Shown: in pieces, positions 19,478-58,690 of the stretch
Position numbering within the stretch: position 1 is the stretch's first letter
Layout: each line of letters starts with the position of its first letter
Origin: Vicugna vicugna
Lineage: Eukaryota
Direction: 5' to 3'
Assembly (NCBI GenBank): GCA_013265495.1
Contig: MU058009.1
Coordinates: forward strand, 3,615,780 to 3,679,779
Length of the DNA: 64,000 bases
Position numbers and translations under genes: made by a program
Notes under the pieces: generated by a model
What the model saw: the letters and a program-made list of their open reading frames with translations, nothing else
The model's database searches: none
What the model was told of the DNA's origin: nothing

Positions 19478-20205
19478 CCATGTGTTTTTCCATACCAAGC
19501 ACTTCTGTACTTGTCCGTGGACACTGACCGTCTGCTGATAATGGGAGAACTCTGCCCTGCAGTTTTAATTCAATCCTGACGCTATCTACCTGAAGACCCC
19601 AGTCAGGGCTCAGTCTCACTAGGCTGCCCCAACTCAGACGCCAATCATAAGTCCAGGTTGTCACCTGTGGCTGTAAATCAGAGGTTCCCACGACCCCCTC
19701 CTCACATTCAGTTCATTTGCTGGAGCAGCTCACAGAGCTCAGAGGAATATTTGCTCACGATGACCAGTGTGCTACAGAAGATGGTGTAAAAGATCCTTCA
19801 TGCGGATCAACAGCCAGATAAAGAGGCACATGGGGAGGTTCGGAAGGACCCTGAGTGCAGGAGCTTCTGTCCCCGTGGAGCTGGTGGGTGGGCACCACCC
19901 TCCTGTGGTTGATGCCTTCCCCAGGCAGCTCATCAGATCTCCTTGCTTGAGTTTTCACAGAGCTTAACCACAGCCCCTCCTTCCCCCTCCCAGAAGTCCT
20001 TGTGGGGCTCAGAGTTCCAACCCTCTAATCACGGGGTCTCCCTGGGGACCAGCCCCATCTGCCCCTACTAGAGGCACCACCCTGTCACCTCATTAGCACA
20101 CGCTCAAGAGGGGCTTCTCATGGATGATGAAAGGCAGTCCTGTCACTCAGGAGATCAGTGCCTGCAACAGGGACAGAGACCAAATCTCTTTCTTTCTACA
20201 CCACA
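19478..20205 (-). mobile_element. MER21-type LTR
   Basis: aattcaatcctgacgctatctacctg...agggctcagtc...ctgccccaactcagacgccaatc...aaatcagaggttcccacgaccccctcctc...gcagctcacagagctcag...agagttccaaccctctaatcac...gacagagaccaaat...caccaca matches the reverse complement of the recalled MER21B/C consensus. Confidence 0.82.
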
Positions 20206-21089
20206 CCGGCCCTTGGGTGTCCCTCTGAAGTTGAGAGATAACACCCAGAAGACACAAGACAAGGCCACTGCGTGCTAATGGCCTTTGACTTCAGCTGAAC
20301 AGGACCACAGCGGAGCTGGGGGCCTGGCGGCCACAGTTATTTCAAGGGTCTTTCTGGGCACCTCGTAAGCCCCTGCTTCTGCTTGGGAGAAGGCGCTGGT
20401 CCATCCTCTATGGACCCCCAAGGGGCTGCCACAGGGGGCAGAGCCTTGGCGCGGGCACTTGGCGAGCAGAGGCCCTATGCTGGGCACTCAGGGAAGGGAA
20501 GGCGGGAGAGCCTCGGGGCACCGAGCTATAAATCGGCACAGTCCACTTAGGAGCTTACATTTATTTTTTTCTCATCAGCACAGATGCTGTTGCTGGTAAT
20601 GGAGCTGCTGCGCAGGAACTCATGCATGAGATTAGCTGCAGAGGAAGGACGGTTGGGTTGCGAGAGGAGAACCCAGGGGTGGCTGCTCAGTTGTGGGCGC
20701 CGGCAGGGCCAGCAAACCAACTGGGGCCTGCATTTCCAGGGCACAGACAGGAGGGGACCCTGGAGACAGAGTCCAGCTCCCTCACTTTACCAATGGGGTC
20801 AGAGGGCCAGGTCGGGGAAGGGACTCGCCTCAGGGCATAGGGCAAGCGGGGACGGGGTTTAGGGCAGTAAACTTGCCTGCCCAGCGAGTCTTTCCTTGGC
20901 AGTCCTGCCTGCAGAGGGATTCCCGGTGCAGGAGGAAGGAGCACAGGGCGGGTGCTCGGCCAGAGGGCAATGCTGGCATCGCCCAGATCTTTCTCTCCTT
21001 CTTTCTCATTCAAACCCTCTCCTCTCTTAATTAACTCGCTCCCTCTCTGTTCATGGGGTAACTTCCAGCAGTTGGCCCTTCACAGGAGC

Positions 21090-22130
21090 GTGTGTGGGCG
21101 CGCATGCTCGCGTGGGCGCGCATGCTCGCGTGGGCGCGCATGCTCGCGTGGGCGCGCATGCTCGCGTGGGCGCGCATGCTCGCGTGGGCGCGCATGCTCG
21201 CGTGGGCGCGCATGCTCGCGTGGGCGCGCATGCTCGCGTGGGCGCGCATGCTCGCGTGGGCGCGCATGCTCGCGTGGGCGCGCATGCTCGCGTGGGCGCG
21301 CATGCTCGCGTGGGCGCGCATGCGCACAGACTCAGGCGGGGCCCCAGGTGTGCTCCCCGACCGCGTCCGCTCGGGGAGGCAGCGGACAGGCCCTGGAAGC
21401 CCGGCCCGTCTCACCCCTGGGCTGACGGGGACAGTCCGTCCAGACAAGTGGGGCCCCACTGTCCACACTCCGGCTGGGGACGCACACGGGCGAGCCGGGA
21501 GGAGCCCTCCTGCGCCCTGGCTGCCGCTGCCCGGGCCGCGCTCTCCCCGCGCTCGCTCTCCCTGGTGCGGAAGCGGGGCCGCCAGGCGCGCTTCCGTGGA
21601 GGCACCGCCGCCTCCGAGGGGTCGCTGCTCCGGGGCCACAGCGGAAGACGTCACCATCGCTCCTCGCCCGGCCCGCGGACCTCAGGTAGGCTGCTTTACT
21701 GACGCTTTCAAGTTGCTGCCACTGACTTTGTCCCAAGAAGCTTCTCCATGACTACGCCCCGGGCGGAGCAGGCCTCCCTTGGCCCTCAGCTTCCCCGGGG
21801 CTCAGCCGGTAGACGGGAGGTCAGCACGGTTGGCAGGAGGGGCGGCGCTCACGCTGGCGGCTCTGGGCCGACCAGTCACCCGCCGCCTGTCTCCTCGCCC
21901 TGGGATGCGCCCCCCGGAGTGCCCCTTTCCACTTGTCCAGTTCCTGCGCTGTCAGCCTCCAAGGCAGGCGTGGGCTGTTTCTCCAGGAAGCCTCCTCTGA
22001 ACCCTTAGCCGGGAGGCTGGCTCCGCCGCCTGCCCTCCCCTGCCCTGCGGGGCCTGCAGCGCTCAGCACGGTGTGAGCTCTCCTGGCCGCCCTTCTCCTT
22101 GGACCGTGCCCTTCTCGGGGCCTCGGCTGT
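21090..22130 (+). promoter_or_regulatory. CpG island / candidate TATA-less promoter with possible first exon
   Basis: Very CpG- and GC-dense. NRF1 consensus CGCGCATGCGCA 21315-21326; GC box 21334-21342; ETS/GABP cores CGGAAG 21568, CTTCCG 21591, CGGAAG 21642; CRE-like GACGTCA 21647-21653; donor-like CAG|GTAGGC with GT at 21686. Strand is inferred from the donor only. Confidence 0.7.
21094..21327 (+). repeat. Perfect 18-bp minisatellite (GTGGGCGCGCATGCTCGC)x12 plus one variant unit GTGGGCGCGCATGCGCAC
   Basis: Read directly: 12 identical units at 21094-21309, 13th unit at 21310-21327. Confidence 0.98.
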
Positions 22131-22157
22131 AACTTGTCTTTGTCTTTTGGTGTTTTT

Positions 22158-22326
22158 CAGTGGGTTCTTTATAGAAATTATAACTTAGAATCACTTGGAG
22201 GATATTTTTTAAAATGTCTGTGCTTGGGTTCTACCTCCAAATAATTAAATCAAAATCTTTGAGTACCGGGTCCTGATGTATTTTTGTTAAAAGCTCAAAT
22301 ATTCGTTCAGGGTTGAGAACCATTGC
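22158..22326. mobile_element. MER5B-like hAT MITE
   Basis: cagtgggttct...ttagaatcacttggagg...ttttaaaatg...aattaaatcaaaatctttg...cagggttgagaaccattg. Confidence 0.7.
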
Positions 22327-25300
22327 AGTAGAAGCCACAGAAATGTTTGTTGAATGAATGAATCCTTCTCTCCAGCATTTAGGAATGCAGAGGAGATGGG
22401 GCGGCACGGTGGGGGCCCCTCTGGAGTCCAGAAACTCCCTTGGGTGGGTTACGCCCATTTCTTGTGGGCTCTGTATGTAGAAGTCAGTCTGTATCAGTCA
22501 TTTAAACAAACTGTTGAAACCTGTTCTGGATATTATACACTGAACACAACAGAACCCATTTCTTCTATTTGCAGAATAAGGGGGGAAGGGTGTGCACGGC
22601 AGAGAAAATAAGTAACTTATTGACAATTTATTGTACGCATTTACTGAACGTGAACTGTATGCCTCGCCTCCAGTGGGTCAGTGAGAGACGCGCACCTGGC
22701 CAAGGCTTGGATTTTCAGCCTGGTTAGGGGAGCTGGGCAAGCAGCGCTTTGTCGATGAGTGTTTTCCCTAGATGTTCTAAGGACGACCTTACTTGGTTCA
22801 GATAATTAGAGGAGAAGGCAGCGTGCCATCAGGTGCTAATTATGCGGCGCAGAAATAATATGAAAGGAGTCAGTGGAGGGAGAGATCACTGTGGGCTGAC
22901 GTCTCAGAGAAGGCTCAGCAGAGGAGGGAGACTGCAGGCGCGGGCCAGGAGGACGGGCCCACGCAGGACTGGGTGTGGGCAGAGGGAAGCCAAGCCCGGC
23001 CAGAGGACTCGCGTGTGAAGGTTCAGACGTGGGCACGTGCGTCTGGACGTTGGTGAAAAGACAGGTCTGACTGGGACAGGCGGTATTTGGGGGAAGGAAC
23101 GTGAAATCCATGTGCTCGGGGCGGGTGGGCCAGATGAGGAAGGACTCAGGCACCGGCGGGAGAGGTGAGCCTGAAGCTGGGGATGGGTGGGGGGTACCCC
23201 TGTGTCATCATTCTGGGACCTGGGGACCCTGCGGTCACGGCATGCTAGAAGCTGGTTCTGCCCGGCAGGACGGGGAGCGGCACAGAGGCCATGGGGGCCC
23301 TGCAGGGTGCAAGAGTATGACCTCACCAGGCTCCGCTTGTGGTGCTGGAGGGAGGGACCCGGAGCCTGGGGGTCTCCAGGACAACCGCCCACGAGGCCTA
23401 AGCCACCACTGTGCTGGGTTTCACTGCGGTTCCGTTTCCTGAGCCCCTAACATCCTTCTGGGATGTTAATTTGGGGCTCCTAGATTTGGACCTGGGTAGA
23501 GCCTCCTTTGTAAGGGAGTGGGTACCATGTTGGGCTGGAAGCTCTTTCATCACTGCAAACACCTTCTGAACATTTGGAGTTTCCTGAGCTTACTGGGCCG
23601 AGAGATGGCAGCGGCCTGGACTCCCCCACCCCCTACTGCTTTCCTGCCCAGGCGTAGGGCAGCCTCCCTGCTGCAAGCCCCACCGTCCCCCAGAGGTCCC
23701 CGGCCCGCTGGCGGTCTCGGGGGGAGGCCTTCCTGAAGGCCTCCTCCTTTCTGAGATGGAAGACTCGGGGAGAGACTTTCCTCCTCCTGGGCTCAGACCC
23801 TTGGCAGAGGGGCCCTTATTTCCAGGGGCGTGCTGGGTTTCAGCGGGCCGGCAGGACGCTTCCTGAGCCAGGTGACCTATGCTCTCATTTGTAAGAAGGG
23901 GTGAACAGGGCCCGTTACTCAGTCTTGTAGAGCCGAGTGATGAACGTGAACGTGTCTGCTGCGTAGCAGCTGCTGCGTGGGGAAGGCTGTTACTAACGCA
24001 GACATCCCCTTTCACCCTGTGCAGCCCTGAGGGGCCTCTTGGCTTTCCCAAGATGCCGGGCAGTCACGGCCCTGGGTGTGAGCCCAGCGACTCTGAGGTT
24101 CTGAGAGGTGCCCCTCCTCCTTCGTCAGCTCGAACGGGGCTCAGAGACGGGCTGAGCAGGTCCTATAATGCCTTTGTGTGGGCTTTTATCACTCGGAGGC
24201 CTGGGACTGCTTCCTTCTGCAGTGACCCCCCAGGAGAAATCACACCAGCACCCGCTCCATGGTCAGCTCCCTCTGGGGACCGTGCAGTTGCCAGTGTCCT
24301 GAGTGATGAAGCCAGGACTCCAGTTTCCTTTTGCTCTGGGGCCGGCTCTCCCAGGGCTAGATTTCCACATCTCAGAGGAGCTGTCTGTCCTAAAAGCAAA
24401 CCTATCCATCTCTGAGCTTCCTTTCATGCCTACAACCTCCTCTCAGGACTGCTGGCCAAGGACAGAAACCCAGGACTTCTTTCATTCTTGGCAGAGGGGT
24501 CTCCTGGGGATGCGGGGGTGGGGGGCATGTGGAAAGCAGACCTAGTTTGGGAAAGTAGAAAGTAGGAGACGGGAGAAGGCCTTCTGTAGACGGCCGACCC
24601 CTGCAGCTCCCCGCACGCGCCTTCAAAGAGTGGAGCCCGCCTGCGATTATAACTAATGATGGCGAGTGATGGGAAGTGCTCGGTGGAGAGGGCTGGAGGG
24701 ATGGGCACTCATGGGAGTCAGCAATTCCACCACAAATAGAGGGAGGCGTTTTCTGCATGAAGGGCAGAAACTGCTTCTTTGGTGGTGGAGAGACACGGAG
24801 AGGCAAGCACAAGGAAAAGAGTGGCTTTATTCAAAAAACAAGACGGGCAAACGAAAGGAAAAGCTCTCCTCTAGGAATTCTCAAGCCCGTAGAAGACCCA
24901 CTTTCGGCGCACGGCTGGGTTGTGTGTTGGCACAGAGCACACGCTCCAAGGTGAAATGACGTGGCTGACGTGTCATAACCCTGGCCACCAAGTCCGCATT
25001 GAAAGCACAAGCTACTCGCCACCTGTGATGTCTGCTGGCCTTGGCTCCAAATACCTGCCCGATGAGGACAGCGTGATTCCCACAGCCATCCGTGCACTCC
25101 CCTAACGCCCTACTCTTCTCTGCATCCAGACTGCCGTCCAGGACGCATCGCTGCTCCTGCCTCCTGTCCCAGTCGGCGCCGGGGCTGGGGATTCTGTGTG
25201 CAGAGGTAGGGGAGGCAGAGAGGCAGAGAGGCAGAGGCAGAGCGTGATATCCATCCAGGGAAGCCCACGGTTTGCAGGTGCTGTAACTTCTAGGAAGTGT

Positions 25301-33991: not shown

Positions 33992-34909
33992 CGGATGTCA
34001 TGCAGCACAATTAGTTAATGCTTATAATGTGCTCTCAACAAGGAAAGTGCCACTTAAATTCACAGCATTTCTACCCTCTCAGTGATCCCTCTACAGATTC
34101 CGTCCTTCCCGTGGAGATTAGGCGGTTGACTGCATCGTGGCTCCAAATCACCACAGTTGCTGGTAGAGCAATAGAATCAAGTATGAAACTAATCTGTGTG
34201 GGAAGGAGACAGCTTTTTTTGAAGGCAAACTCACAAAGCAGTGATTTCTTCTTTCCTTTAAAATGGCCTCCTTCGTACTGGGGGTCCGTAGGCTTGTTCC
34301 TCCTGGGCGCGTTGCTCTCACAACGTCGGGGAGAGGCGCGCACACGCGCGCACACACACACACACCCCCCATACGTAACTCTCAGCCCAGCACGCAGGGT
34401 TCCCGCCTACAGCGACTCTGAAAAATTGCTTTAGCAGGTTGTGAGGGATGAACGAGGAACTTTGAAAGAATATCGATAATCGGTAAAGGAAGGACAGGGA
34501 AGGGAGAGGGCAAAGGGGGCCCCACGAGGAGGTAAGAAGAAGGAAGGGCACAGGGAGAGGGTGGAGGACAGGAGGGGAGGTGAGCTGTAGTCAGAGGAGC
34601 AGTGCCCTTGGCAGCCCCACCCCCCCGGGTCCTGTCAGCAGCTCCGCCCCAGGGCAGGAGCCATCGGGAGGGAGCCCGGCCCCACCAGGGGCACTCTGCG
34701 CCATGTCAGCCCAGCAGCGCCGCCCGAAGTCGTGGCTTTTATGCAGCCAAGGAGTCCCGCAGCCCTGGGAGCTCCAGTGCAGACCAGATCCGAGCTGGCT
34801 GTTAGGAAAGTCTCCCCTAGGTGTTTTTGCCTCGTTTCTTCGAGGTGGATGCCTGACAGCAGGTCTGTTTACTGTCATAAACCTGAGACACCCAGGAATT
34901 GGACTAAGT

Positions 34910-37886: not shown

Positions 37887-37963
37887 GGCGGGCGGGCGGG
37901 GTGCACAGGTCAGGGCAGAAAAGGAGGCGGGCGGGCGGGGAGCAGAGGTCAGGGCAGAAAAGG
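37887..37963 (+). repeat. 39-bp-period tandem duplication (2 copies, 2 mismatches), GC-box and G-run rich
   Basis: ggcgggcgggcggggtgcacaggtcagggcagaaaagg versus ggcgggcgggcggggagcagaggtcagggcagaaaagg. Confidence 0.9.
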
Positions 37964-51920: not shown

Positions 51921-52016
51921 GGGCATCACTGTGATGTCCCTGTGGGCGTCACTGTGGGATGTCACTGTGATGTCACTGTGGGCGTCACTCTGGGCATCAC
52001 TGTGGGATGCACTGTC
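51921..52016 (+). repeat. Degenerate 11-13-bp minisatellite with GTCACTGTG core, about 8 units
   Basis: gggcatcactgtgatgtccctgtgggcgtcactgtgggatgtcactgtgatgtcactgtgggcgtcactctgggcatcactgtgggatgcactgtc. Confidence 0.85.
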
Positions 52017-52523: not shown

Positions 52524-52623
52524 TTCACCGCCCAAGACACCCAACTTCCATCCACTGCAGCGTCAGGCTCAAGTCCAGTCTCGTGGTCTGTGATGGCTGG
52601 GGGTGTGCACGGGGCTCCTTGGG
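52524..52623 (+). repeat. Dispersed direct repeat, copy A (matches 54467-54564; 71-bp identical core at 52553-52623)
   Basis: cactgcagcgtcaggctcaagtccagtctcgtggtctgtgatggctgggggtgtgcacggggctccttggg occurs identically at 52553 and 54494. Confidence 0.95.
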
Positions 52624-53966: not shown

Positions 53967-55770
53967 TGTTTCCACTGTGTCTTGCTGCACAGCAGACTAC
54001 CTAGAGACTTGATGGCTTAAGACAAACGTGATTTGTTATTTCTTCTGCTTCGTGGGTTGGCAGGGGTTCTTCTGCTTCTCGTGGTGTCGTTGGCTGGAGT
54101 CCCTCAGCAGCTGCATTCAGCTGGGCGCTCAGCTGGGTCTGAAACACACGGGACGGCTCCCTCGCGTGTCCAGGGCTCTTGGTCCTGCTGCACGGAGCCT
54201 CTCTCCACGGGACCTCTCATCACCCAGTATTCCAGCCTGGACCTCCTTGCACAACAGCGGGCTTCTGGCAGAAGCAGGAGCCTCAGACTCCAAACTACGG
54301 GCCAAAGCAATGGCAGATTCAGGAAAGGGGGTACAGCCTGGACTTCAGCACGGGAAGAGCTGTGAGCATGGACAGGCTGGCAAGAGTGACCGGGCCCCTT
54401 CCAGACAGCCCCGCACCCTCCGCCTTCTCACTGCAGCAGCTCACAGCCATCTTACAGGGACATATGTTCACCGTCCCAAGACACCCAGCTTTTCACTGCA
54501 GCGTCAGGCTCAAGTCCAGTCTCGTGGTCTGTGATGGCTGGGGGTGTGCACGGGGCTCCTTGGGTCGGACACCTCTGGAGTTGAAGAACCGTGGCCTGAA
54601 AAATAGCAGGTCCTCCACATTCAGTGGAGAGTCAAGATACAATGATGATATGGGAACAGGATAACTTCCCTAAACACTCCCCTCAGAAAGGGGAGGAACG
54701 GGATGCATGGAGCTGTCACTGGTCCCCGGTGATTCTAAAATCCGAAGAGGTGTTGGTTACCCATCACCCTCCCTGGGGGCAAAGACGTTTCCTCGATGAG
54801 GGTCAAGTGCTGCCTCTGAGGGTTGCCAGGCCCACTGCTTCTGGCTCTGCCCCTGGACTCCGGCTTTGCCCTCTGACCCACCATTCCGTTTTCACATGAC
54901 GTTGTGCAGGCTTGCAGCTGAATCCCTGAAGCTGCGTGCTCCCCAGGAAGGCAGGAGCTTCAGTGACTTCTCCACTTGGAACTTCCCTGTTCCTTTTTCC
55001 AGTCTGGCAGTTCTCTCTTGAGGACAAAGCTCTTTAAATGTCGCGTGTCATCCACCGACCTTGCGGGGTGGATCCACGCCCCGCGCCCCAGCACACTTCC
55101 TGCTGGGCCGGACCTCTTTCCACCTTGGCAATGTGATGCTGTCGTGGGGCAGCGTGATTCTGGGCATCCTTCGGTCTCACTCCGAGTCCAGGGGGCGTGG
55201 CCTTAGATCCTCCAGAGGCCAGAGCAAAGGGTCCTCCAGCCACTGCCTTGATTTGGTCTTTTCTCTAAGGCCCTTACATTGAGAATCCCTGCCCCTCAGA
55301 GACACTGTCCTGAGGATCCGGTATTTCCTCCAAATTCTGCTAGAACACTGGTCAGCCCTTCTTTGCTCCGAATCTTTGGCACCTAAACATACACTGTGGT
55401 GGCCGCAGCATCTTGCCTGGAACTTTCTTAGCCACGTCTGTGGCTCTTACCTCCCAGCTCTTCAGGCCTCCACTAACGCTTGCCTCCTGGCCACATCATG
55501 GCAGAGCCATGGCCATGTGTCTATGGCAGCATCTCAGTTCTGGGTGCAATTTAGGTATTGGTTGCTGTCTTAGTCACTTATCACGGTGGAAACCCTTCCC
55601 AAATCTTAACGGCTTACGTGACAACTACTTTCTCGTGATCCTGAGATGAGTTCAAGGCTCAGGAAGGCTGACTCACCTGTGCTCCCCATGGGGATGGTTA
55701 GGGCCACCCAGGTGGGCTGTGCTCCTCCGGGACTGGAACATCTAAGGACTCACCCCGTCATGTCTTGGGA
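53967..55770 (-). mobile_element. MaLR (old MLT1) proviral remnant: LTR (~53967-54414), internal region (~54415-55553), partial second LTR (~55554-55770)
   Basis: Both ends start with the MLT1 reverse-strand pattern (ttgctgcacagcagactacctagagacttgatggcttaagacaaac; cccttcccaaatcttaacggcttacgtgacaac). The interior has MaLR-int motifs caagatacaatgatg...ggataac...aaacactcccctcagaaagggg and ends cagttctgggtgcaattt. Confidence 0.65.
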
Positions 55771-58560: not shown

Positions 58561-58690
58561 GGGTGATGATAGTGGTGTTGGTGATGGTGATGATCGTGGT
58601 GATGATGGTGGTGTTATTGGTGGTGATGGTGTTGATGATGGTGATGATAATAGTGGTGATGGTGATGGTGGTGGTGGTGATGATGGTGGT
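58561..58690 (+). repeat. Compound (GGT/GAT)n trinucleotide repeat
   Basis: Read directly; it abuts a minus-strand MIR. Confidence 0.95.

Follow-up and report, generated by a model that had tools for sequence, protein, structure and literature searches.

A perfect, CpG-dense 18-bp tandem repeat at the left edge of a CpG island raises the questions of whether the repeat is truly part of the genome, how it came to be multiplied, and whether the number of its units affects transcription from the neighboring island. We examined these questions in a single 64-kb stretch of DNA, hereafter the window, in which the repeat is located as follows.

21094-21327, no strand assigned: 18-bp minisatellite, comprising 12 identical units (21094-21309) and a terminal variant unit (21310-21327)

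The internal units are 12 identical copies of GTGGGCGCGCATGCTCGC, the terminal unit is GTGGGCGCGCATGCGCAC, and the total of 234 bp contains 51 CpGs; on recount, the original prediction had described the array exactly. TRF reported a period of 18, 12.8 copies, 100% matches and a score of 460, which was the highest among the 18 TRF rows for the window. The unit alternates between purines and pyrimidines in runs of 10 and 6. As its units of at least 7 bp stand head to tail and are present in genomic DNA, the array is a minisatellite under the size definition of units of 7 bp or more given in PMC8096271. Other, degenerate tandem repeats in the window were found at 37887-37963 (period 39), 51921-52015 (12-36) and 58562-58690 (3-33). 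Separately, two 71-bp copies with 100% identity lie 1941 bp apart at 52553-52623 and 54494-54564, each preceded by a similar short stretch, and this pair has the appearance of a recent duplication or conversion within the region.

We screened 24 sequencing runs, 17 of which contained at least half of the words of 19500-23500, and compared four of them with positions 21256-23500, a stretch that takes in the final four units together with the right flank. Three of these were DNA runs (X2, X4 and X10, from organisms A, B and C, respectively) and one was an RNA run (X18). In all three DNA runs (3/3), the repeat was assembled as a loop contig with 0 other letters; a loop of this kind requires at least three identical units on one allele, and the array is therefore not an assembly or insertion artefact built on one or two units. 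In the X10 contig, the native left flank joins directly to unit sequence. Of 2207 flank bases, 17 were different in organism C; two of these differences are private to the window and four form a single block, and the internal and terminal units were unchanged. Since the units are common to organisms A and C despite this divergence of the flank, the array is genomic and predates the split of the two. Searches with the array found no match in plasmid sequences or in metagenome contigs, which rules against an origin in a synthetic construct. Among the remaining runs, X6 comprised only 1 million letters and yet contained 0.86 of the 19500-23500 words, a share that points to targeted sequencing with the array region among the targets.

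The count of 13 units stands on the window assembly, and the contigs show at least three units only. The ratio of loop to flank depth corresponded to ∼9-10.5 units in X2, ∼5 in X4 (∼4-6 as the range for X4 and X10) and ∼3-5 in X10; depth is no direct measure of copy number, however, and the ratios were re-examined by simulation, whereupon these first estimates were downgraded. In X2, which came from organism A and from a study different from that of X1 (the run richest in words of 19500-23500), the loop depth was 238, compared with 27.6-33.7 in the flank, and the simulation fitted 8-11 units and touched 13. For X4, 4-8 units fitted on the assumption of no read loss. The X10 node depths of 32 and 27.7 fitted a homozygous four-unit allele badly, and were compatible with 6-8 units if half of the reads had dropped out, with 8-13 units if three-quarters had, or with a heterozygote of 1/6-1/7 units. 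Because X4 and X10 came from one study, a shared dropout of the GC-rich hairpin could mimic short alleles. Unit-number polymorphism between alleles is likely, and no allele longer than the 13 units of the window was indicated in the three DNA runs examined out of the 17 with half the words or more. The term VNTR, used in the original prediction, holds for the tandem repeat, and for the difference in unit number it is likely only, as the depth simulations allow dropout instead.

We next describe the recognition motifs within the units.

21110-21316, plus strand: 12 exact EGR1/Zif268 consensus 9-mers at 18-bp spacing (first at 21110-21118, last at 21308-21316)
21100-21307, plus strand: 12 one-mismatch NRF1 10-mers from a motif scan (first at 21100-21109)
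21315-21326, no strand assigned: the sole full NRF1 consensus in the window, a 12-mer in the terminal unit

The EGR1 consensus GCGTGGGCG, printed as the EGR1/Zif268 consensus in PMC6715719, PMC5569922 and PMC5815098, is composed of the end of one unit and the start of the next, and occurs 12 times in the array and 0 times elsewhere in the 64 kb. Since each 9-mer spans a unit junction, an allele of n units has n-1 predicted EGR1 sites, and every extra unit adds one exact consensus (12 for 13 units). The original prediction had phased the unit from GTG and passed over this junction 9-mer. It had rightly placed a true NRF1 consensus in the terminal unit, and this consensus is unique in the window; the units thus carry one consensus and 12 one-mismatch NRF1 recognition motifs, and the GCGCATGC part of the motif occurs 13 times on the plus strand, always within the array. 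The internal NRF1 10-mer, read on the minus strand, is the C4>A variant, for which PMC10810270 (Table 2) gives a Kd of 1.38 versus 0.31 μM, ∼4-fold weaker binding that is still binding. Single-base changes in the GCGC halves are also described as lowering NRF1 reporter activity ∼3-fold. The proposal of an amplified NRF1 site therefore stands insofar as an NRF1 motif is repeated; the amplified copy, however, is the weaker C4>A variant, and the perfect motif that was amplified is that of EGR1. Each NRF1 10-mer shares one base with the EGR1 9-mer preceding it (if any), so that the two tile the 18-bp period, and an n-unit allele contains n-1 exact EGR1 motifs, n-1 weak NRF1 motifs and one strong NRF1 motif. 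Judged by these predicted sites, expansion multiplied perfect EGR1 and weakened NRF1 motifs.

When the unit was permuted, an exact EGR1 site appeared in 752 of 400,000 permutations, and an EGR-type site together with a one-mismatch NRF1 site in 8 of 400,000; with the NRF1 part fixed, the exact EGR1 9-mer was present in 3 of 168 arrangements. The motif scan comprised 12 motifs chosen after the sequence had been viewed, and the tiling is for this reason suggestive only. XRE-like and class-C bHLH-like words also recurred 12 times in the array but were found at 10 and 23 other places in the window, and were given no weight. A bacterial promoter scan, which is not applicable to mammalian DNA, found nothing.

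As for the origin of the repeat, the sequence immediately to the left of the array resembles the end of a unit.

21088-21093, plus strand: left-flank 6-mer, in register with the unit end and pairing with the terminal 6-mer at 21322-21327

In this register, the 6-mer is GCGTGT in the left flank, GCTCGC in the internal units and GCGCAC in the terminal unit. An allele of one unit would have the left-flank and terminal 6-mers one period apart as a short imperfect direct repeat, from which the first duplication may have started. This arrangement is the one expected for slippage between short repeats that are not contiguous, a process reportedly described by Taylor and Breden in 2000. No one- or two-unit allele was seen in X2, X4 or X10 (X18 is without cover over the array), and the seed is accordingly a reconstruction. 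At 34336-34365, an alternating GC/AC tract of the same make as the presumed seed is present in unexpanded form.

The folding of the units may bear on the later growth of the array. Two units form a hairpin of -13.4 kcal/mol on the plus strand and -14.8 kcal/mol on the minus strand, compared with -1.7 and -2.1 kcal/mol for one unit, and growth in two-unit steps is predicted from the stability of the former and the instability of the latter. Relative to dinucleotide shuffles, the hairpin gave z = -4.39 on the minus strand and z = -0.67 on the plus strand. Arrays of permuted units folded as well in 81 (minus strand), 245 (plus strand) and 223 (better strand) of 1500 cases; the stability is thus ordinary for the composition (223/1500), and we rejected the hairpin as a special cause and retained it as a contributing factor only.

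The island to the right of the array was analyzed independently of the repeat.

21328-22130, no strand assigned: CpG island, standing without the array (803 bp, GC 0.72, 72 CpGs, o/e 0.70)

The window as a whole is GC-rich mammalian DNA (GC 0.54, CpG o/e 0.45), and the next-best 800-bp stretch elsewhere in it contains 56 CpGs. The 500 bp to the left of the array have a CpG o/e of 0.36. The array was therefore correctly placed at a CpG-island edge, since the island persists without it and the left flank is not an island. Within the island we noted ETS-type cores (21568, 21591-21596 and 21642), a CRE half-site (21647) and GC boxes, all of which are common in the window. The island showed no real match to other sequence in the window, and the idea that it is written over a repeat was dropped in view of this comparison. 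Several small differences were observed in or near the island: X18 carries 22 extra bases at 21872, inside the island; a block of four neighboring bases (22406-22409) is changed in organism C (X10); the window alone differs from X2, X4, X10 and X18 at 21566 and 23041; and at 21667 a base of the window is missing from X2 and X4. Those at 21566, 21667 and 23041 are private alleles or assembly errors.

We then compared the island with X18, an RNA run from a relative ∼5% diverged, whose contigs amount to 936 million letters and may contain DNA. Over 21343-21686 there were 21 differences, of which 16 are listed, and 10 of these 16 are transversions. Transitions at the 41 CpGs that the window has in this interval accounted for 0 of the 16 listed differences, the four that fell at CpGs being transversions, and at most five CpG transitions could sit among the unlisted differences; ∼8-13 would be expected under methylation at the rates assumed. 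Because 0 of the 16 compares with this expectation, the neighboring island looks mostly unmethylated in the germline. Some past methylation is possible, since positions 21566 and 21656 resemble CpG loss on the side of the window and the array edges have TG/CA where the unit has CG.

The units themselves, by contrast with the suggestion that their perfection marks the array as very young or germline-unmethylated, carry little information on either point. If 12 units had been methylated and never homogenized since the split of organisms A and C, ∼1-2.6 CpG transitions would be expected, with a probability of none of 0.08-0.31 at the rates assumed, and turnover of units would erase such changes; the conclusion of youth or lack of methylation does not follow. 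The locus is not very young, as the array units are common to organism C, in which 17 of 2207 flank bases have diverged.

The same RNA run bears on the question of a transcript.

21343-21685, plus strand: candidate first exon, non-coding (lacking an ATG), with a donor-like CAG|GTAGG site at its end

The X18 contig 21343-21686 starts 16 bp past the array and stops one base into the donor-like site; a donor score that good is found at 4 of the 119 GT dinucleotides of the stretch, and we estimate that a contig end would fall at such a site by chance in a few percent of cases, given six pieces. Its depth is 11, compared with 3.9-7.1 for the other five orthologous pieces of X18, and it is also the most GC-rich of them. 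The word share of X18 (0.12) is nearer to the value for cover of the right side only (0.10) than to that for both sides (0.18), although this is a rough figure. X18 covers 29 of 30 bins of the compared stretch, and its gap in cover over the array and 21687-21729 was given no evidential weight. The contig had neither a loose end nor a joint leading to a second exon, and contigs give neither strand nor start. These results, from one RNA run, hint at most weakly at a first exon that would start 16 bp downstream of the array.

No convincing coding exon was found by Pfam in the 150 longest stop-free frames (at least 102 aa; taken from 356 listed with at least 75 aa) or in 58 exon-like candidates, and these searches likewise revealed no target gene. 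The frames gave one L1 ORF1 match at the cut-off and five matches below it, and the candidates one match below it; a Hexapep match was set aside as the array merely read in frame. The window contained no tRNA genes or Rfam families. An L1 ORF1 remnant lies at 214-630 (Pfam Transposase_22, 22.5 bits against a cut-off of 22.4).

We give about an even chance to the reading that the array is a minisatellite, mostly neutral, bordering an island unmethylated in the germline, and that this island probably serves as promoter for a non-coding transcript running rightward. The minisatellite would have grown from a single NRF1 site at the left edge of the island: 18 bp may have been duplicated when two short GC/RY-rich 6-mers, separated by one period, slipped against each other, and a G>T change in one copy may then have spread through repeated gain and loss of units, a process that would also keep the units identical. 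According to computed folding, the two-unit hairpin would favor two-unit slips. Every added unit would supply one junction-made EGR1 site and one ∼4-fold weaker NRF1 site, and EGR-family proteins and NRF1 could bind these in open chromatin. Most likely, the number of units drifts and transcription responds little or not at all, the small size of this effect being a prior and not a measurement.

Several other readings were weighed against this one. It is rather unlikely that the island is not a promoter but an orphan island or an enhancer in DNA without genes, with RNA that represents DNA carry-over or read-through and an array that is a neutral passenger. The lack of a convincing coding exon in the 150 longest frames and the 58 candidates fits this reading, as do the cover of 29 of 30 bins by a run of 936 million letters whose library possibly contained DNA, and the lack of a joint to a second exon; however, the most GC-rich piece of X18 is the deepest and ends at a donor-like site, and the word share of 0.12, a rough estimate, is nearer to 0.10 (right side only) than to 0.18. 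A functional dial, in which n-1 EGR1 and n-1 weak NRF1 sites upstream of the start set the inducible output of the island transcript, seems unlikely. EGR1 would bind regardless of methylation and could bring TET1, NRF1 would need unmethylated DNA, and the base-sharing sites may compete. According to the cited papers, EGR1 binding is insensitive to methylation (PMC6715719, PMC5569922) and EGR1 recruits TET1 (PMC6715719), the latter lending support to the dial along with the tiling of motifs (8/400,000 permutations; 3/168 arrangements), the adjacent X18 RNA contig, and the precedents of the Sp1/Egr-1 boxes of ALOX5, the 29-bp repeats of TERRA and the PU.1 motif of MAD1L1. The motifs were nevertheless selected post hoc from 12, so that 3/168 is not strong, about a million accessible Egr-1 decoy sites are given per genome (PMC5569922), single-base GCGC changes of the kind noted above lower the NRF1 reporter ∼3-fold, and no target gene emerged from the 150 frames and 58 exon-like candidates. 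We consider it decidedly unlikely that each duplication made a two-factor switch, in which a perfect EGR1 site overlaps a weakened NRF1 site by one base, jointly with a one-unit ancestor that was an NRF1 site without an exact EGR1 site. If true, a constitutive, methylation-sensitive NRF1 promoter would have become a signal-inducible, methylation-proof EGR1 promoter, one that can clear its own methylation via TET1 and whose strength is set by a unit number differing between related species.

A long-lived recombination hotspot as the common source of island and repeat, acting through GC-biased gene conversion on the former and through meiotic exchange on the latter, is very unlikely. The window has G/C where X18 has A/T at 45 places and the reverse at 27 (P = 0.044), but this tally is unpolarized and includes non-orthologous repeat contigs, the island already exists in a relative ∼5% diverged, and it is unlike the other repeats in the window. 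Inflation of the array by the assembly, with a true allele of only a few units, could account for the identity of all units and for the loop depths of X4 and X10, which taken alone suggest ∼4-6 units; we judge it highly improbable, however, because X2, which represents organism A and was produced in a different study from X1, has a loop depth that fits 8-11 units and touches 13, X4 and X10 still need at least three units, and plasmids and metagenome contigs gave no match pointing to a construct. An expansion-silencing locus similar to CSTB or FMR1 is scarcely credible: a CpG-dense, hairpin-forming repeat does lie at an island edge, but no allele longer than that of the window was indicated in 3/3 DNA runs, no gene or phenotype is attached, and in PMC7348995 the expanded CSTB alleles were not found to be methylated in blood.

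As it stands, the array is an ordinary minisatellite at the edge of a probable promoter, with no gene or trait attached. It could serve as a clean natural test piece: the units are identical, n units give exactly n-1 EGR1 motifs, and of the two motifs that tile the period only one is methylation-sensitive. Should a dose effect be shown, this would be a clear case in which tandem duplication creates a site that is absent from the single copy and changes the input logic of a promoter.

In the literature on NRF1, EGR1 and camelid VNTRs outside subscription journals, titles and the openings of abstracts revealed no paper on this locus. The kind of promoter repeat is already well known from published accounts of ALOX5, the TERRA 29-bp repeats and eVNTRs. 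The GC-rich promoter of human ALOX5 is described as containing a short tandem array of Egr-1 sites, and also of Sp1 sites, whose number varies with the allele (PMC13179450), and the present array resembles it with predicted EGR1 sites; at ALOX5, however, the usual number of boxes is five, the gene is known and phenotypes are linked to genotype (PMC13179450), whereas the present array has an 18-bp period and an EGR1 motif that occurs only across junctions and alternates with a weak NRF1 motif. The CSTB dodecamer, like the array, is a GC-only or GC-rich repeat, and it lies in a CpG-island promoter. As PMC7348995 describes it, its copy number rises from 2-3 to 30-75, expression is lost and methylation was not found in blood, and nothing comparable is indicated for the array. 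The analogy with CSTB that had been proposed is therefore weak for a methylation mechanism.

The 29-bp repeats of TERRA offer a closer parallel to the idea of a methylation-sensitive NRF1 repeat, and PMC6600276 indicates that this mechanism has already been shown for them. TERRA is a non-coding RNA with a CpG-island promoter, and methylation of the repeats blocks NRF1 and lowers the output (PMC6600276). Both systems have CpG-rich tandem repeats with mismatched NRF1 sites and a CpG island; the TERRA repeats are found at about twenty human chromosome ends in a 61-29-37 arrangement and were studied by ChIP and targeted demethylation (PMC6600276), whereas the array is seen at one place and carries predicted sites. 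Among gene-proximal human VNTRs, 163 of 10,264 genotyped are eVNTRs and 51% are polymorphic, and the odds of being an eVNTR are about doubled where a TSS lies within 100 bp (PMC8024321). VNTRs that contain factor motifs occur frequently near promoters, with an enrichment at CpG islands (PMC8096271), and the PU.1 motif of the MAD1L1 VNTR was tested by EMSA and a reporter (PMC11701250). The array resembles these human eVNTRs and promoter VNTRs in being a minisatellite with factor motifs near a candidate start site and a CpG island (PMC8024321, PMC8096271 and PMC11701250), but it belongs to a different lineage and was recognized from its sequence and not from an association of length with expression. 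The detail that it adds to these known systems, at the level of predicted motifs, is an exact EGR1 motif that exists only at unit junctions and tiles the period together with a weakened NRF1 motif.
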